42,236 nucleotides of DNA, from the NCBI GenBank assembly GCA_041288045.1, contig JBGGMM010000181.1, positions 1 through 42,236 of the forward strand, read 5' to 3'. Source of the DNA: Pseudobdellovibrionaceae bacterium (GTDB lineage: Bacteria > Bdellovibrionota > Bdellovibrionia > Bdellovibrionales > Bdellovibrionaceae). The notes beneath the pieces were generated by a model. It was not told the origin of the DNA. It made no database searches and was given only the letters and a program-made list of their open reading frames with translations. Below, one piece after another: positions 20,701-27,390 of the stretch; within the stretch, counting starts at the first letter, position 1; the number at the start of each line of letters is the position of its first letter. The position numbers and the translations under genes are program-made.

Positions 20701-20830
20701 GCGCCAGTACGCAGTGCTTGAAGAGTTCCACACGGCTCCGAATGTTCGCTACCTTTCAAAAATCAGAAATGATGATCAAGAGACACGACCCGGTTCACAC
20801 GGTCACGACAGCAAAGGCGGTCACTCATGA
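17708..20830 (+). CDS. actB: Alternative complex III subunit ActB (molybdopterin-oxidoreductase-like domain plus Fe-S domain)
   Basis: YW.SL N-terminus, Tat motif ARREFLK with SAGC lipobox, [13 protein letters not shown], Fe-S motifs [44 protein letters not shown]. Confidence 0.95.
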
Positions 20831-22188
20831 GTCAGATGAAAAGAAATCCTCTGGTTCTGGGACGGAAATCCCTGAAAGATATCACTGAAGACATTGTCGC
20901 TCCGGTGGAAAGCTTCCCCTCTAAAGGTTGGCTGGGGCTTTTTCTGAGTGCGAAAACTCTTTTCATTTTTTACATCATCACCTTAGGACTTGTGGTCAGC
21001 ACAGGGATGGGGCTTCTCGGGGTCAATCATCCCAATGCCTGGGGAACGATGATTATCACTTTCGTTTTCTGGATCGGGATTGGTCACGCTGGGACTTTGA
21101 TTTCGGCGATTCTTTTCTTGTTCCGACAAAAATGGCGAACTTCAGTGGCCAGAACTGCCGAAGCGATGACGGTTTTTGCGGTGATGACCGCGGGGCTTTT
21201 TCCGCTTCTGCACACGGGTCGTCCTTGGTTGGATTTCTGGCTCTTTCCTTATCCGAATCAGCGCGGTCCACTGTGGGTGAATTTCCGCTCGCCGCTTCTG
21301 TGGGACGTGTTTGCGGTCTCCACCTATGCCACTGTGTCCATGGTTTTTTGGTACATCGGGATGGTTCCGGATTTCGCGACCATTCGGGACCGGGCGAAAA
21401 ATAAAATTCGCTACATGATGTACGGTGCTTTAAGCCTCGGCTGGCGAGGAACGGCAAAGAACTGGAGCCATTATGAAATGGTTTACTTGCTTTTAGCTGG
21501 CCTTTCGACTCCGTTGGTTCTTTCGGTTCACACCATCGTTTCTTTCGACTTCGCTGTTTCGAACCTTCCGGGATGGCACACGACGATCTTTCCACCGTAC
21601 TTCGTTGCCGGTGCGATTTTTTCGGGTTTCGGGATGGTTGTGACTTTGATGACTTTGGTTCGGATCGGCTTTCCGGAGTTTAAGAACTACATCACTTTGG
21701 ATCACATGGAAGTGATGAATAAAATCATCATGGCCACAGGTCTCATGGTTGGTTACGCTTACGGATCTGAATTTTTCGTAGCCTGGTATTCTGGAAATCT
21801 TTATGAGCGAGCGGTCTTCATCAACCGGGCTTTTGGGGATTATGGCTGGTCTTACTGGTGCATGATCAGCTGTAACGTTTTGATCCCGCAGCTTTTCTGG
21901 TTTAAGAAAATCCGTCGAAGCATTCCAATCATGTTTGTGATTTCGATTTTCGTAAATATCGGAATGTGGTTTGAGCGCTTCGTGATCACTGTCACATCCC
22001 TGCACCATGATTTCCTGCCTTCTTCTTGGGGGAACTACGCCTGGTCGCCCTATGACACTGCGATTCTGGCAGGTAGTTTTGGGATGTTCCTCACTCTGTT
22101 CTTGCTCTATCTCCGCTTGTTCCCAGCGATTTCTATTGCTGAAGTGAAGCCTGTGATCAACGTCGGTTACGAGGAAGGGAAGCACTAA
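20827..22188 (+). CDS. actC: Alternative complex III quinol-oxidising NrfD-family subunit ActC
   Basis: [76 protein letters not shown]. Confidence 0.96.
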
Positions 22189-23276: not shown

Positions 23277-24476
23277 ATGGCTGACACACATCACACACAG
23301 CTTCATGCGCAAAAATTCGAACCCTCTCAAAAGCTCAAAACAGCAGCGATTGCCTTTTTGGTGATCGGTGTTTTGGGATTCGTGATCGGATTGATGAAAG
23401 ACCAGGAACGTCTTTGGACTTCTTACCTTGTGGCCTTCTTTTATGTTTCTTGCTTGGGATTGGGTGGACTTTTCTTCACTTGCATCCAGCATGTGACGAA
23501 AGCTGGATGGAGTGTGAGCATCCGTCGATTGACCGAGGGCATGGCCTCTTTTCTGCCAATGATTATTGTTGGGAGCTTGGTGCTTCTGCTGGGTGTGAAA
23601 AAGCTTTATCTCTGGGCGGACGCTGGTTATGTGGCCGAGCATCCGATTGTTCAAGCGAAGACCTCGTACCTGAACACTGGATTTTTGATTGTTCGCCTTT
23701 TGATTTTCTCAGTCGGGATGTTTTTGTTCGGCCGAAAAATCATTGGCAACTCTTTGAAACAAGACCAAACAGGGGATCATCATCTCACTCACCAAAATGT
23801 GGGCTGGAGCATTGCGTGGGTCTTGTTCTTTGCTCTGTCATTTTCTTTGTTCTCAGTCGATCTTTTGATGTCGTTGCTGCCCACTTGGTACAGCACGATT
23901 TTCGGGGTTTATTGCTTTGCTGGTCTTTTCCAGAGCTCATTGGCCTTTTTGATTTTGGTCATGTTCTACTTTAAGAACACGGGCGTGATCCAAGGTTATT
24001 ACACCGAAGACCACATCCATGACGTCGCAAAGTTCCTGAAGGGCTTCACCGTGTTTTGGGCCTACATCGCATTTTCACAGTTTATGTTGATCTGGTATGC
24101 GAACATTCCAGAAGAGACCGAGTACTATTTGATGCGAGCAGAAGGTGGATGGATGGCCATTTCCTTCAGTCTGCTGTTCTTCAAATTCATCATTCCCTTC
24201 CTGGCTCTGCTGCCACGAGGAGTGAAGCGGGATCAAAAACGCTTGATCCCCATCTGCATCCTGATTCTGGTCATGCAATACATCGATGTGTACTGGATGG
24301 TGTACCCCAATTTCTACGAAGGCCAAGTGACTTTCGGTTTCTACGAAATCACCTTGCTGATGCTCTTCCTAGGCGCATTCCTGATGACCATGATCAATTT
24401 CTTCAGAAAGAACAACGTGGTCGCAATCAAAGATCCAAGAATGCACGAGGCTCTTCATCACCATGTGACGTACTAA
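23277..24476 (+). CDS. actF: Alternative complex III membrane subunit ActF
   Basis: Multi-TM; AGWSV.IRR..E, YLN..F..R, D.LMSL.P.WYSTIFG, FWAYI.FSQFMLIWYANIPEET. Confidence 0.93.
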   Translation: MADTHHTQLHAQKFEPSQKLKTAAIAFLVIGVLGFVIGLMKDQERLWTSYLVAFFYVSCLGLGGLFFTCIQHVTKAGWSVSIRRLTEGMASFLPMIIVGSLVLLLGVKKLYLWADAGYVAEHPIVQAKTSYLNTGFLIVRLLIFSVGMFLFGRKIIGNSLKQDQTGDHHLTHQNVGWSIAWVLFFALSFSLFSVDLLMSLLPTWYSTIFGVYCFAGLFQSSLAFLILVMFYFKNTGVIQGYYTEDHIHDVAKFLKGFTVFWAYIAFSQFMLIWYANIPEETEYYLMRAEGGWMAISFSLLFFKFIIPFLALLPRGVKRDQKRLIPICILILVMQYIDVYWMVYPNFYEGQVTFGFYEITLLMLFLGAFLMTMINFFRKNNVVAIKDPRMHEALHHHVTY

Positions 24477-24510
24477 TCTAACTGATTCTCAAAAAAATCG
24501 AGAGCAAACG

Positions 24511-24540
24511 AAAAGGACGGGGAAACCTGTCCTTTTTGTT
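24511..24540 (+). terminator. Intrinsic terminator of the act operon (A-tract/U-tract, possibly bidirectional)
   Basis: AAAAGGACGGG-GAAA-CCTGTCCTTTT followed by TGTTTTT, 35 nt after the actF stop. Confidence 0.85.
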
Positions 24541-24571
24541 TTTAAAGACCAAAAAATACCCACAACACAAG

Positions 24572-24935
24572 CCCTCCTTCTCCCAAACACTTGCCAGACG
24601 ACCCGGAGCCGCGGAGGCGAAGCTGGACGATGCCATGTCGGCGGATGGTCGTCTGGGAGCCTTCGCATGGACGGACCTACTCGCGTTTACCCTCGGCACC
24701 GCTGTGCTGGAGACCCTCCATCCACGATGTTGACCGTCGGCACGCTATACCAACGGACAACATCGTGGATGGGGTCGCCGCGAAGTCTTTTCACAAAGTG
24801 ATGCGCGAAGCCCAGGTCTTCGCCTGATCGTGAACGTCCGTGTCCGTCTTTTCTGGAAATTCGGCCCTCCACGGCCTCACCCCTTCGGGGCTCGCCTGCG
24901 GCGAGTTTCCAGAAAACCTGATGGGAGGGGGAGGG
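24572..24935 (+). ncRNA. Candidate large structured RNA or non-autonomous structured repeat element, unidentified
   Basis: 14-bp closing stem 24572-24585/24922-24935 (2 G.U); perfect stems 24594-24603/24647-24656 (10 bp), 24718-24732/24758-24772 (15 bp), 24849-24859/24906-24916 (11 bp); C(UUCG)G loop; GC-rich; no credible ORF. Confidence 0.55.
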
Positions 24936-24965
24936 GAGATAGAGATAGAGATAGAGATAGAGAGA
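24936..24965. repeat. Hexanucleotide tandem repeat (GAGATA)4 plus GAGAGA
   Basis: Four perfect copies at 24936, 24942, 24948 and 24954, then one variant copy. Confidence 0.95.
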
Positions 24966-24990
24966 AATGCAGTCTTGTGCTTGGTGGAAA

Positions 24991-26064
24991 CTAATCTAGC
25001 TCGTCCAGCACGTTGAGATATTGGGCTGTGTTTTCTTTGTTGTCCTTGTCAGGATCGACGTTCTTTTTTTCGATTTTGGACATCTTTCCCTTGTTCATGG
25101 GGTACTTCATGTTGTGGTTTTCTTGGAGCCATCCGTTCAGGGATTTGATTTCGGCAAGTCCCGGGAAGAGTTCAATGTCTTCTGGGCTGAGCTTTGAGTA
25201 AGCCACTGGGATTTTCACTTCGATAACTGTCTCGCTGGGGGCGTAGACATTGAATGATCTGTTGTCGGCCAAACGGGTGAGGCGGACGTTTTCATCCAAA
25301 GTGATTTGAACATCGATGGCTTCTTCTGGGTTTTTAGAATTTTTCATTTTGATGCTGTAAGAAACTCTTTCGTATTCTGTCTTAGCATACAAGTTTTGAA
25401 CTCGGCGGGCAGGGTTGGCGTAGAGCTCTGTCATGAACTCGAGAGCATTGTCGACTTCTTCAGCTTTTCCGGGATTGAGAAATTCCAGTCTTTTCCTGAT
25501 TTGTTCTTTGTGTAGGAAAAAGGAATCCGTGGTGAAATTGCGGATGTCTTTATCATAGCAAAGCAACCGAGGCTTGTTGACCACGTTAGGAAATTCTGGA
25601 TGCTGAATTTTTAGTTCGAGCCAGGATTTATCGGCTAGATCTTCAGAGACTTTCAAGTCCCGCCAAAAAACATCAATCTCTTTTCGAGTGAAGTATTTGC
25701 GAAATCGGACCTTGGCCGATTTTTCTTCACCTTTCACAGTCTTGTACTTGGCCACCGTCAAATAAAGAGTGGAAGTGATGTTGAGAATGCCGTCTGGGGC
25801 TTTGTCCCTGTTTTTCATGGCTTTGCCAAAATATTGTTGAAGGCGATGGAGCTGCTGGTTGAGGTCGGTGGTTTCAACCACGTATTTCACCTCTTGGCGA
25901 AGCGAAGTCGTATCTTGCTTTTTTCCATTCTGGATTTTTTGGACCACTTGGCTAAAGCGGTCCAGCTGGACAGGTTGTGGGTAAATTGCAGAGCAAAGTG
26001 GCGCGCTCGCAAAGGCCTGCGCCAGGAAAAGGAAAAAGAAAAAAAACGAGACAAGATGTCTCAT
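24991..26064 (-). CDS. VTC-domain / CYTH-superfamily (polyphosphate-polymerase-like) protein with signal peptide
   Basis: R.E.KY (RQEVKY), ITSTLYL, KVRFRKY, LELK, YERVSY, ITLD, VIEVK in the expected order; Sec signal ending AFA. Confidence 0.72.
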   Translation of the reverse strand: MRHLVSFFFFFLFLAQAFASAPLCSAIYPQPVQLDRFSQVVQKIQNGKKQDTTSLRQEVKYVVETTDLNQQLHRLQQYFGKAMKNRDKAPDGILNITSTLYLTVAKYKTVKGEEKSAKVRFRKYFTRKEIDVFWRDLKVSEDLADKSWLELKIQHPEFPNVVNKPRLLCYDKDIRNFTTDSFFLHKEQIRKRLEFLNPGKAEEVDNALEFMTELYANPARRVQNLYAKTEYERVSYSIKMKNSKNPEEAIDVQITLDENVRLTRLADNRSFNVYAPSETVIEVKIPVAYSKLSPEDIELFPGLAEIKSLNGWLQENHNMKYPMNKGKMSKIEKKNVDPDKDNKENTAQYLNVLDELD

Positions 26065-27332
26065 TGTGCGATTCCCTCCATCTGAATCGGAAGAAATTGT
26101 CCTTTGTTCTGAAGATAATTGATCAAGGCACTGTATTTTTTGGAATCAATTTCGGTCACGGCATAATCAATATTTCCAAATTTATTATCTTGAGTGATAA
26201 AAAACAGTGTGACTTCTCGATTTTGATCTTTATCGAAATGCTTGACGATCCACATGAACTGATCCTTGCTCACTTGAAATTTTTCAGCATTGAGATTCGC
26301 AGGATATTCATTGGTTTTTGGGTACAATGGCGACTGTTCGCGCAAAGTCTTATCAAAATCCGATTTGAGGTCTCTCATTTGGTTTTTTACGGTCTCCGGG
26401 AGAGTCGGTGAGTCGACGGCCTTGTCGAGAGCGGAATTGAGCCATGCTTTTTGGTCTCCGCTCAGCACGGATTGTACAAAGTTTTTTCCAACGAGAACCT
26501 GATTTGGAAAGAAAGTGACAGCGCCGACAAAAACAGAAAAGATGATCATTGGTCTCATCGTCATTTTGAGAAATGTCTTGAAATACTCCTTATTCATGAA
26601 TTGACCCATTTTAGTTTTGAAGGCTCGGTAGTGCATCAAAGTCTTCATTCTGAAGTAATTTTTGGAATTGGCGAGATCCCTCAATTCGTCTTTTGTCAGG
26701 AGCTCAAGACGGGGGGCGATCTTGCCAAATTCAGTTAAAACTTCGCCAGAAATCTCACTTGGGATGTGAAGTTTGAAGTCTTTGAAATTGATGCCAGTGA
26801 AGTCATTCAGGTCAAAGTTAATGGATGTATCCAATGTGCCATCCATATTCAAAAGTGTGTTTCGGACTTGATGAGAATTTCCAGAAGGATCAATCAAAAC
26901 CAAGTTTTTTGGGATGTAGCGCGCATGAGTACGGAAATCTGATTTATAGGTGATTTCAACGGACCAACCCTTTTCCAGCGGAAGTCCCAAAACCAGGGAG
27001 CCTAAGGCCTTTCCCTCAAAATCTTTGAAAGAAAATTTCACTGCCCGGGTGTGGTTGATCATTCGGACCAGTTCCATCACAGCCATTCTGGATTTGGGGG
27101 CTAGGGGCTGTTCGCTTAAAAAGAGAGCTCCAGCTGGAGAATCAATTCGGATATTTCCCTTTTCATCCAGAAGCAATTCTTTGTCTTTGCTCTCCACTCG
27201 CCACTGGAGAGAAAAAGGCTGGGCACTGCTATGAACCAGGTCACAGCTTCTTTGCGCAAGACCAGGAAAATGGACTGCGGTGACGGTCAGAATGACCGCC
27301 AGGATCTGGAGAATCCAACTTTTTTTCAACAT
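26061..27332 (-). CDS. Hypothetical exported protein with one internal hydrophobic helix
   Basis: GGAGG SD before ATG 27332, signal ending GLA, hydrophobic PMIIFSVFVGAVTFF. ATGA overlap with the VTC-like gene. Confidence 0.75.
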   Translation of the reverse strand: MLKKSWILQILAVILTVTAVHFPGLAQRSCDLVHSSAQPFSLQWRVESKDKELLLDEKGNIRIDSPAGALFLSEQPLAPKSRMAVMELVRMINHTRAVKFSFKDFEGKALGSLVLGLPLEKGWSVEITYKSDFRTHARYIPKNLVLIDPSGNSHQVRNTLLNMDGTLDTSINFDLNDFTGINFKDFKLHIPSEISGEVLTEFGKIAPRLELLTKDELRDLANSKNYFRMKTLMHYRAFKTKMGQFMNKEYFKTFLKMTMRPMIIFSVFVGAVTFFPNQVLVGKNFVQSVLSGDQKAWLNSALDKAVDSPTLPETVKNQMRDLKSDFDKTLREQSPLYPKTNEYPANLNAEKFQVSKDQFMWIVKHFDKDQNREVTLFFITQDNKFGNIDYAVTEIDSKKYSALINYLQNKGQFLPIQMEGIAQ

Positions 27333-27390
27333 TTTTCGCTCCTCCAATAAAGAGACTTCGAATCGGCAAACCGATCTGTAGGGGTCTAGA

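Follow-up and report, generated by a model that had tools for sequence, protein, structure and literature searches.

The structured element at 24559–24987 of the window (the whole 42,236-nt stretch of DNA analysed here, a contig of a Pseudobdellovibrionaceae bacterium) belongs to a familiar class of selfish repeat DNA, here in a form that is undescribed and unusually elaborate. The reading we favor, with a probability of about 0.68, is that these 430 nt represent a single copy from a modular family of dispersed, nested palindromes of the REP/BIME/REPIN kind, the units of which spread as single-stranded DNA by way of Y1 enzymes. The composite as it stands here is most likely a non-autonomous element that a divergent family of Y1/HUH transposases moves in the form of single-stranded DNA hairpins. 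A first-pass annotation of the same DNA had left two readings side by side, an undescribed ncRNA and a non-autonomous ssDNA or RNA mobile element. Our analysis removes the candidate novel RNA gene and documents an undescribed repeat system instead.

On one side of the element a plus-strand ORF ends at 24476 and has a hairpin-plus-T-run of its own (24506–24541); on the other side a minus-strand ORF ends at 24991. As the first-pass annotation had remarked, it is GC-rich (0.56–0.62) relative to its flanks (0.42–0.46). Also in keeping with that annotation, which had seen neither a clear promoter nor the signature of tmRNA or another known RNA, Rfam gave no match at the gathering score over the whole window, a permissive Rfam search of 24400–25100 returned only noise at E > 0.7 (best E = 0.77), an ARAGORN scan found no tRNA or tmRNA, and a promoter and terminator pattern scan of 24300–25200 found nothing, including no promoter-like site. 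The names "actF" and "VTC-like" that had been given to the neighboring genes lack Pfam or NCBIfam support, the ORFs at 23277–24476 (+), 24991–26064 (−) and 26061–27347 (−) being without a match at E ≤ 0.001. The only related matches in the profile search of flanking genes were a chance-level LolA match and a weak DsrP/NrfD-like match on the ORF at 20827–22188.

Relative to dinucleotide shuffles the fold has z scores of −3.88 as plus-strand RNA, −4.99 as minus-strand RNA and −5.29 as plus-strand DNA, and in all three cases none of 100 shuffles folded as well as the element. The stems that had been named at 24559–24987 are present, either in a repeat search or in minimum free energy (MFE) folds, and the parts run as follows on the plus strand. 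The left tail (24559–24593, ACCCACAAC...) contains the pyrimidine-rich outer arm CCCTCCTTCTCCCA (24572–24585) and an A-rich spacer before the first hairpin, H1; it is homologous to the stretch that joins H1 to a Y1 gene on contigs C234 and C189. H1 (24594–24656) is a 10-bp stem found in the repeat search as fully (100%) complementary arms, CCAGACGACC (24594–24603) and GGTCGTCTGG (24647–24656). Its loop, usually 3–5 nt, is expanded in the window copy by module D (24604–24644), an inserted 41-nt GC-rich mini-hairpin. The body of module A (24644–24716) carries the box CATGGACGGAC, the word GTTTAC and a small hairpin (GGCAC-CGCT-GTGCT), and ends in ..GAGAC. Module B (24717–24776) is a long palindrome with 23-nt arms (24718–24740 and 24750–24772, repeat search) and a 9-nt loop. 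A variable linker follows (24777–24848) with a GCGAAG/CTTCGC hairpin (24805–24823, repeat search) and then GTGAAC and GTCCGTC, which in MFE folds close long-range helices with module A: GTGAAC at 24830–24835 with GTTTAC at 24685–24690, and GTCCGTC at 24842–24848 with GACGGAC at 24670–24676. Module C (24849–24917), a cloverleaf recovered both by the repeat search and by MFE folds, is a four-way junction with the stem TTTTCTGGAAA/TTTCCAGAAAA and hairpins GGCC..GGCC, CCCC-TTCG-GGGG and CTCGCC-TGC-GGCGAG. The right tail (24918–24981) comprises the purine-rich outer arm TGGGAGGGGGAGGG (24922–24935), a (GAGATA)4.7 microsatellite (24936–24963) and then AAATGCAG..GTCTTGTG. An GAGGAGGG-like run follows most full copies, and the copy on C235 is alignable out to 24979. 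The two 14-nt outer arms are 86% complementary in the repeat search and close the whole structure in the window copy, and strong outer pairing occurs in only about five to six of the 14 full copies; a proposed extension of these arms by CACAAG/CTTGTG appeared only in centroid folds of the window copy and is not confirmed. The "closed multi-domain" shape first described for this element is a nest of palindromes.

Copies of the element are scattered through its own genome (G000; 2.89 Mb in 249 contigs, labelled here by C-numbers, and 83% complete). A BLAST search with 24500–25050, the copy-number check that the first-pass annotation had proposed, gave 92 HSPs that resolve into 58 loci on many contigs, and so revealed a dispersed multi-copy family. 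The core (24644–24919) has 20–48 other copies, and this number thins to a few by about 24572 and 24938. The whole A-B-C order is found at about 16 loci with 71–92% identity, the rest being separate modules. Among the 300 most abundant 16-mers of the genome, 131 fall in the element, and in contigs from two soil-metagenome runs the summed depth is 44–214 on the element versus 5–6 on its flanks. Repeats with at least five other copies make up about 2% of the genome, and the repeat system breaks the assembly at many contig ends. According to a simple long-ORF gene call made for this analysis, the 58 loci comprise 26 convergent, 19 tandem and three divergent intergenic sites and ten contig ends, against a background of 437 convergent, 1589 tandem and 435 divergent intergenic spaces. 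Most copies thus lie past the 3' ends of genes, and many start 0–20 nt after a stop codon.

The individual modules also occur apart from one another, in different orders and orientations. The H1-A unit (24588–24716; a 10–11-bp hairpin, the box CATGGACGGAC and the small hairpin) stands alone at at least ten loci. Module C, taken as a unit of about 24799–24919 that holds the four-way junction, stands alone at C51:7499 and on C244, and its first 25 nt are absent in seven of the 14 full copies. Module B is a free-standing palindrome with unrelated flanks in other Bdellovibrio MAG records, and within an otherwise unchanged scaffold it is flipped in copies C51b, C229, C235 and C113, which BLAST aligns better to module B on the minus strand. 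Module D is missing from 13 of the 14 aligned full copies. It expands the H1 loop in the window copy and on C25, C234 and C189, and its sequence recurs in reverse within module C on C167, C209, C64 and C217, where it occupies the loop of the GGCC..GGCC hairpin; both settings adjoin a GGATGG(Y)C context. Small units are thus found inside the hairpin loops of larger units. Further short repeat modules (..AAATGCAGCAGAGCTGATCATG.. and GTTCAGAAAACGCTGCGGCATTT) follow module C copies at C167:24860-25010, C209:31570-31730, C64, C217, C77:6815-6910, C51:7460-7500 and C244:2697-2740, so that the mosaic extends beyond the four modules H1-A, B, C and D.

The gene upstream of the element is present in seven of seven congeners with 73–77% DNA identity; synteny of the downstream gene is lost, so that an empty site is undefinable in these genomes. 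Three soil-metagenome runs (DNA contigs) contained no joint that spans this locus and lacks the element, and as to mobility we saw no empty site, excision junction or polymorphism, the relatives being too distant (~75% neighbor-gene identity). In two congeners, G006 (locus L085) and G007 (locus L086), other GC-rich repeats lie behind the orthologue of the ORF ending at 24476; the one in G006, at the orthologous position, consists of an oppositely oriented H1-A unit whose stem, CAAGACGGCC/GGCCGTCTTG, is fully compensated. The other five congeners have no repeat behind this orthologue. Viral contigs, phages and plasmids gave no matches, and neither a 26-nt flank word nor a 24-nt module-C word had a match in JGI metagenome contigs. 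A match to the B-arm pattern in a Thermoanaerobaculales sequence (L061) consists of a single arm in GC-rich sequence and is most likely due to chance. Searches of the literature turned up no account of REP, MITE or IS200-type repeats for Bdellovibrio.

The fold is conserved among copies. For an alignment of 14 full copies (A1) RNAalifold predicts 73 pairs, and 97.6% of the 999 pair cells are standard pairs versus 35–42% in controls with slid partners; over the 14 copies, pairing reaches 94.9% in helix 3 and 95.2% in helix 4. Column identity is higher in paired than in unpaired positions (96.0% versus 87.6%, p = 4e-8). The covariation check suggested at the outset did turn up compensated pairs: five pairs (10 cells) changed on both sides versus 2.8 ± 1.3 cells in shuffles, and in module C the pairing CTCGCC/GGCGAG is replaced by TCCGCC/GGCGGA, a double compensation, in two of the 14 copies. 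In H1, eight of ten pairs are compensated (see below). Covariation in palindromes is no proof of function or of selection, because arm-to-arm copying can keep palindrome arms paired without selection.

The conserved fold has no preferred strand. Among 789 cells of pairs defined as Watson-Crick there are nine G.U and five A.C cells, per-copy MFEs may be lower on either strand, and the RNAalifold energies are −81.5 kcal/mol for the plus and −85.8 kcal/mol for the minus strand; the earlier statement that G.U pairs favor folding of the plus strand does not hold. Such symmetry is more in keeping with DNA palindromes than with an RNA specific to one strand.

These observations bear directly on the alternative that the copies are functional structured RNAs or 3'-UTR elements (terminators, stabilizers or sRNAs) with a fold selected as RNA. 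Their position a few to tens of bases past stop codons, the enrichment between convergent genes, the conserved and partly compensated stems, a UUCG-type loop that is invariant in 12 of 14 copies and a terminator-like tail, CAAGTTTTT, that follows H1 on the minus strand in most copies would all be natural for such RNAs. Against this, strand asymmetry is absent, the orientation in tandem-gene contexts is mixed (six copies run with the genes and 13 against), modules occur in either orientation and in many combinations, indels of 41 and 25 nt and a flipped B module are tolerated, Rfam has no match and the terminator and promoter scan of 24300–25200 is empty. We consider this alternative unlikely. 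A single undescribed RNA gene between two genes, as the first-pass annotation had put it, is unsupported, the element being multi-copy and modular, with no strand asymmetry, promoter-like site or fixed orientation to neighboring genes. An RNA-level or host-serving role, for instance termination between convergent genes, is possible but unsupported.

The units of the composite differ in how widely they are distributed. A covariance model of H1 plus A (R1, built from 31 copies) matches in eight of 61 sampled genomes of the family, with 48 matches in the own genome, 51 in G006, 22 in G018, 18 in G197, seven in G176 and a single match in each of three more. A model of module C (R2) gives 30 matches in the own genome and one weak match among 60 other genomes. 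A strict H1 pattern, for a hairpin of about 25 nt, occurs in 31 places in the own genome. Across 38 H1 sequences from eight genomes, 98.4% of cells are paired and the compensated pairs number eight of ten, figures that come from an H1-A alignment fitted to the model and therefore favor the structure. The H1 stem is wholly replaced between genomes (CCAGACGACC, ACTTCCGGCC, TCAGATGGCC and others) and still pairs; what is fixed across genomes is the A[CG]GA[TCA] sequence of the loop and, downstream of it, the CATGGAYGGA box. In G006 and G176 H1-A often forms inverted doublets. From these distributions H1-A is an old unit common to several genera, B is genus-wide, and C and D are young, which makes the composite a lineage-specific assembly of old, genus-wide and young units.

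The annotation had also recommended a search for RAYT/HUH genes near copies, and this search was positive: Y1_Tnp genes adjoin copies of the repeat, which, together with the 58 loci, fits the mobile-element reading. The own genome has 16 matches to Pfam Y1_Tnp, in three families. Family 1 consists of ~700-nt units, each coding for a protein of about 150 aa that bears the motifs SHIH and YLxLNQ, and is represented by six full or near-full copies and eight fragments, several of them at contig ends. The family-1 protein scores 35.6 bits on Pfam Y1_Tnp (cut-off 23) and aligns best, although weakly, to ISHp608 TnpA, with HIH on the HUH motif of the latter; on the NCBIfam models IS200 and REP_Tyr_transpos it scores 33 bits (cut-off 55) and 21 bits (cut-off 80). 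Its homologues carry the label "REP element-mobilizing transposase RayT" or "transposase" in public sources; of 151 genomes sampled from the order, 82 have them, and many copies per genome are common. Copies are 84–91% identical at the protein level, and the five full-length paralogs of the own genome show dS of 0.46–0.80 and dN/dS of 0.08–0.19, values that point to old copies kept functional by purifying selection.

Nine family-1 units have a readable 5' flank, and in seven of them H1 or module A lies just upstream of the gene. H1 is intact in five (on C234, C25, C189, C12 and C242), and the unit on C242 carries the entire composite; the unit on C24 has the 3' half of H1 and the end of D in its 5' flank, that on C86 has module A only, and those on C27 and C43 have only doubtful repeat remnants. 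In all nine units the repeat is antisense to the gene with its H1 end nearest to it. The strict H1 pattern is found within 600 nt upstream of four of eight family-1 starts, where 0.05 would be expected (Poisson 3e-7). The junction between H1 and gene unit varies: it abuts CAAG at C25, is placed ~50 nt further along at C234 and C189, and lies inside A at C86. Because they share a homologous junction, the linked copies are counted as possibly one event, and the nine gene-linked copies may stem from one ancestral fusion of gene and hairpin rather than from independent events. In a member of another genus, G197, two family-1-like genes have by eye an antisense H1-A-like hairpin ~70 nt before the start codon, a placement that differs from the own genome and that is the only independent second instance of the arrangement. 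One of seven Y1 loci in G197 has a weak H1-A match (19.9 bits, at the threshold of the model), and none of 28 Y1 loci in G006, G018 and G176 has H1-A within ±1.5 kb. We found no repeat downstream of family-1 genes, and the composite has no clear similarity to the 3' end of the family-1 gene. A resemblance between the 3' hairpin of the gene unit and module C through the 9-nt word TCTGGAAAT, seen by eye, was too weak to use.

Family 2 (nine copies, ~200 aa, DHIH and YIRLNE motifs, several at contig ends) consists of self-contained units of ~700 nt without flanking repeats, on C100, C2, C71, C134, C108, C42, C41, C9 and C10. Family 3 is a single RAYT-like gene at C213:12950-13720 (221 aa, HFH and Y---NP, 63 bits on REP_Tyr_transpos). 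Close on both sides it has inverted copies of a different repeat, the genome's most abundant 16-mer family (AAAAGAGAAAGGCACC, 50 copies), an arrangement that resembles a classical REP-RAYT or TIR-Y1 system and is unrelated to the element. TnpB and reverse transcriptase genes, which had been named as further candidates, were not found above cut-off in the own genome: reverse transcriptase had no match and TnpB reached at most 18.4 bits against a cut-off of 26.3. None of 12 multi-copy genes examined encodes a DDE transposase (in a genome that is 83% complete).

Under the reading that we prefer, the units would spread as single-stranded DNA hairpins that are recognized, cut and rejoined by the family-1 Y1 transposases, and these enzymes would act in trans on gene-less copies such as that of the window. 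New insertions would prefer exposed hairpin loops, and successive nesting would then produce the large fold as a by-product and not as a designed RNA. If the repeats serve the host at all, for instance in termination or insulation where genes converge, that role would be secondary. Several findings speak against this reading: no movement was observed, the gene-linked copies may go back to a single fusion, the 28 Y1 loci of G006, G018 and G176 are free of H1-A, the repeat is missing downstream of family-1 genes, in contrast to the two-sided REPtron layout, and the orientation of the element shows no bias relative to local GC skew (Fisher p = 0.57, a weak test in a fragmented assembly).

The link between hairpin and gene could also be read the other way around, with H1 as a landing site for Y1 units and not their substrate, and with the repeats spreading by recombination, by switching of the template during replication or through an enzyme not seen here. 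REP sequences are known targets for insertion sequences from other families, the junction of H1 and gene unit differs among copies (C25; C234 and C189; C86), and in G006, G018 and G176 no Y1 gene adjoins H1-A, all of which would suit a landing site. The identical orientation in all linked copies would not, nor would the independent antisense arrangement in the leader of the G197 genes, and other candidate movers (reverse transcriptase, TnpB, and DDE transposases among the 12 genes) were not found; we regard this explanation as rather improbable. A classical MITE, that is, a deletion derivative of a DDE insertion sequence with terminal inverted repeats CCCTCC../..GGAGGG that moves by cut-and-paste with target-site duplication, is very improbable. 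The outer arms of the window copy do form inverted repeats, and the arms of a copy pair better with one another than with arms of other copies (permutation p = 0.007); set against this are the scarcity of strong arms noted above, the absence of a flanking direct duplication in aligned copies, the lack of a parent DDE insertion sequence among the multi-copy genes examined, and a modular nested build that is unlike a deletion derivative. We therefore rejected assignment to the MITE class.

REP, BIME and REPIN elements associated with RAYT (TnpA-REP) Y1 transposases are the nearest known systems (PMC3333891, PMC3116915, PMC5581495 and PMC6006769). The family shares with them the high copy number of extragenic palindromes behind genes and the mosaic combination of units. 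As in REP sequences, there is a short palindrome repeated between ORFs (H1, ~25 nt; 58 intergenic loci), a hairpin with an adjacent conserved box and a physical link to a Y1/HUH gene, and as in REPINs, H1-A forms inverted doublets in G006 and G176. Unlike REP sequences (20–40 nt), the composite measures about 330–430 nt and has long-range closing helices. For REP palindromes, PMC3733652 describes a tetranucleotide, GTAG or CGTC, that is conserved at one end; the foot of H1 lacks such a conserved tag across genomes, and it is the loop that is conserved and the stem that varies. RAYT genes are described as usually single-copy with REPs or REPINs on both sides in PMC5581495 and PMC6006769, whereas the family-1 gene exists as at least nine diverged paralogs with the repeat on the 5' side only. 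Table 1 of PMC6006769 gives HUH plus Y---NP as the RAYT motifs; the Y1 proteins examined here have HIH, with the Y motif YL(I/L)LNQ in family 1 and YIRLNE in family 2, and this Y---N[QE] motif matches none of the 12 TnpA-Y1 subclasses tabulated there.

IS200/IS605 elements and gene-less PATEs offer a second comparison, as the gene unit measures ~700 nt and holds a lone Y1 gene of ~150 aa; as in IS200/IS605, hairpins lie near the ends and target duplication was not seen. Subclass 1.1 of IS200/IS605 is characterized in PMC6006769 by DH[VI]H, Y[IV]ENQ, a high copy number at ~99% identity and subterminal hairpins at both ends. Family 1 differs from it in its SHIH and YLxLNQ motifs, in having old copies (dS 0.46–0.80) and not near-identical ones, and in having H1 on the 5' side only, with a different short hairpin at the 3' end; moreover, the gene-less composite lacks the 3' end of the gene unit, and there is no tnpB. 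The build of the composite also recalls another kind of intergenic repeat. BOX elements of Streptococcus pneumoniae are modular intergenic repeats (boxA-boxB-boxC) of variable content with a predicted stable fold, and to our knowledge they have no associated transposase. Our family resembles them in its intergenic, modular A-B-C build with variable content and differs in being linked to a Y1 gene.

The hairpin repeat and its gene could conceivably be a distinct partnership of Bdellovibrio-like bacteria, with diverged, selected paralogs that each have a 5' antisense hairpin and with a transposase that forms a separate TnpA-Y1 subclass. We offer this as a tentative and still doubtful proposal. 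In such a partnership, recognition by the enzyme would depend on the fixed loop and box and not on the freely renewing stem arms, and the repeats would nest in one another's loops to give large folded composites. The contribution of this window is the physical link to a Y1 gene, through which a hairpin repeat specific to this clade, conserved in its loop and covarying in its stem, becomes tied to a concrete family of Y1 enzymes; if the link is true, the REP-RAYT picture would come to include Y1 genes with several paralogs and enzymes that recognize a loop plus a box. On the practical side, such repeats should be masked before ncRNA or covariation calling in Bdellovibrio-like genomes.

Two further observations concern other genes and gene parts seen in the course of this work. 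Small genes for HNH endonucleases (~130 aa, with a single 210-aa ORF) occur in about six copies or more that do not adjoin the element, with sites at C98:19663-20073, C137:2569-2961, C228:4068-4448 and C212:1-633. The leader of family-1 genes contains a 10-nt box, GGGGCGAAGG, that is exactly complementary to the coding word CCTTCGCCCC (codons for FTLRPF) ~500 nt away. This complementarity is found in all six aligned copies of the own genome (e.g., L077, C234:8170-8920) and at the G006 loci L112–L116, and it may represent a candidate long-range pairing for regulation or for end recognition.
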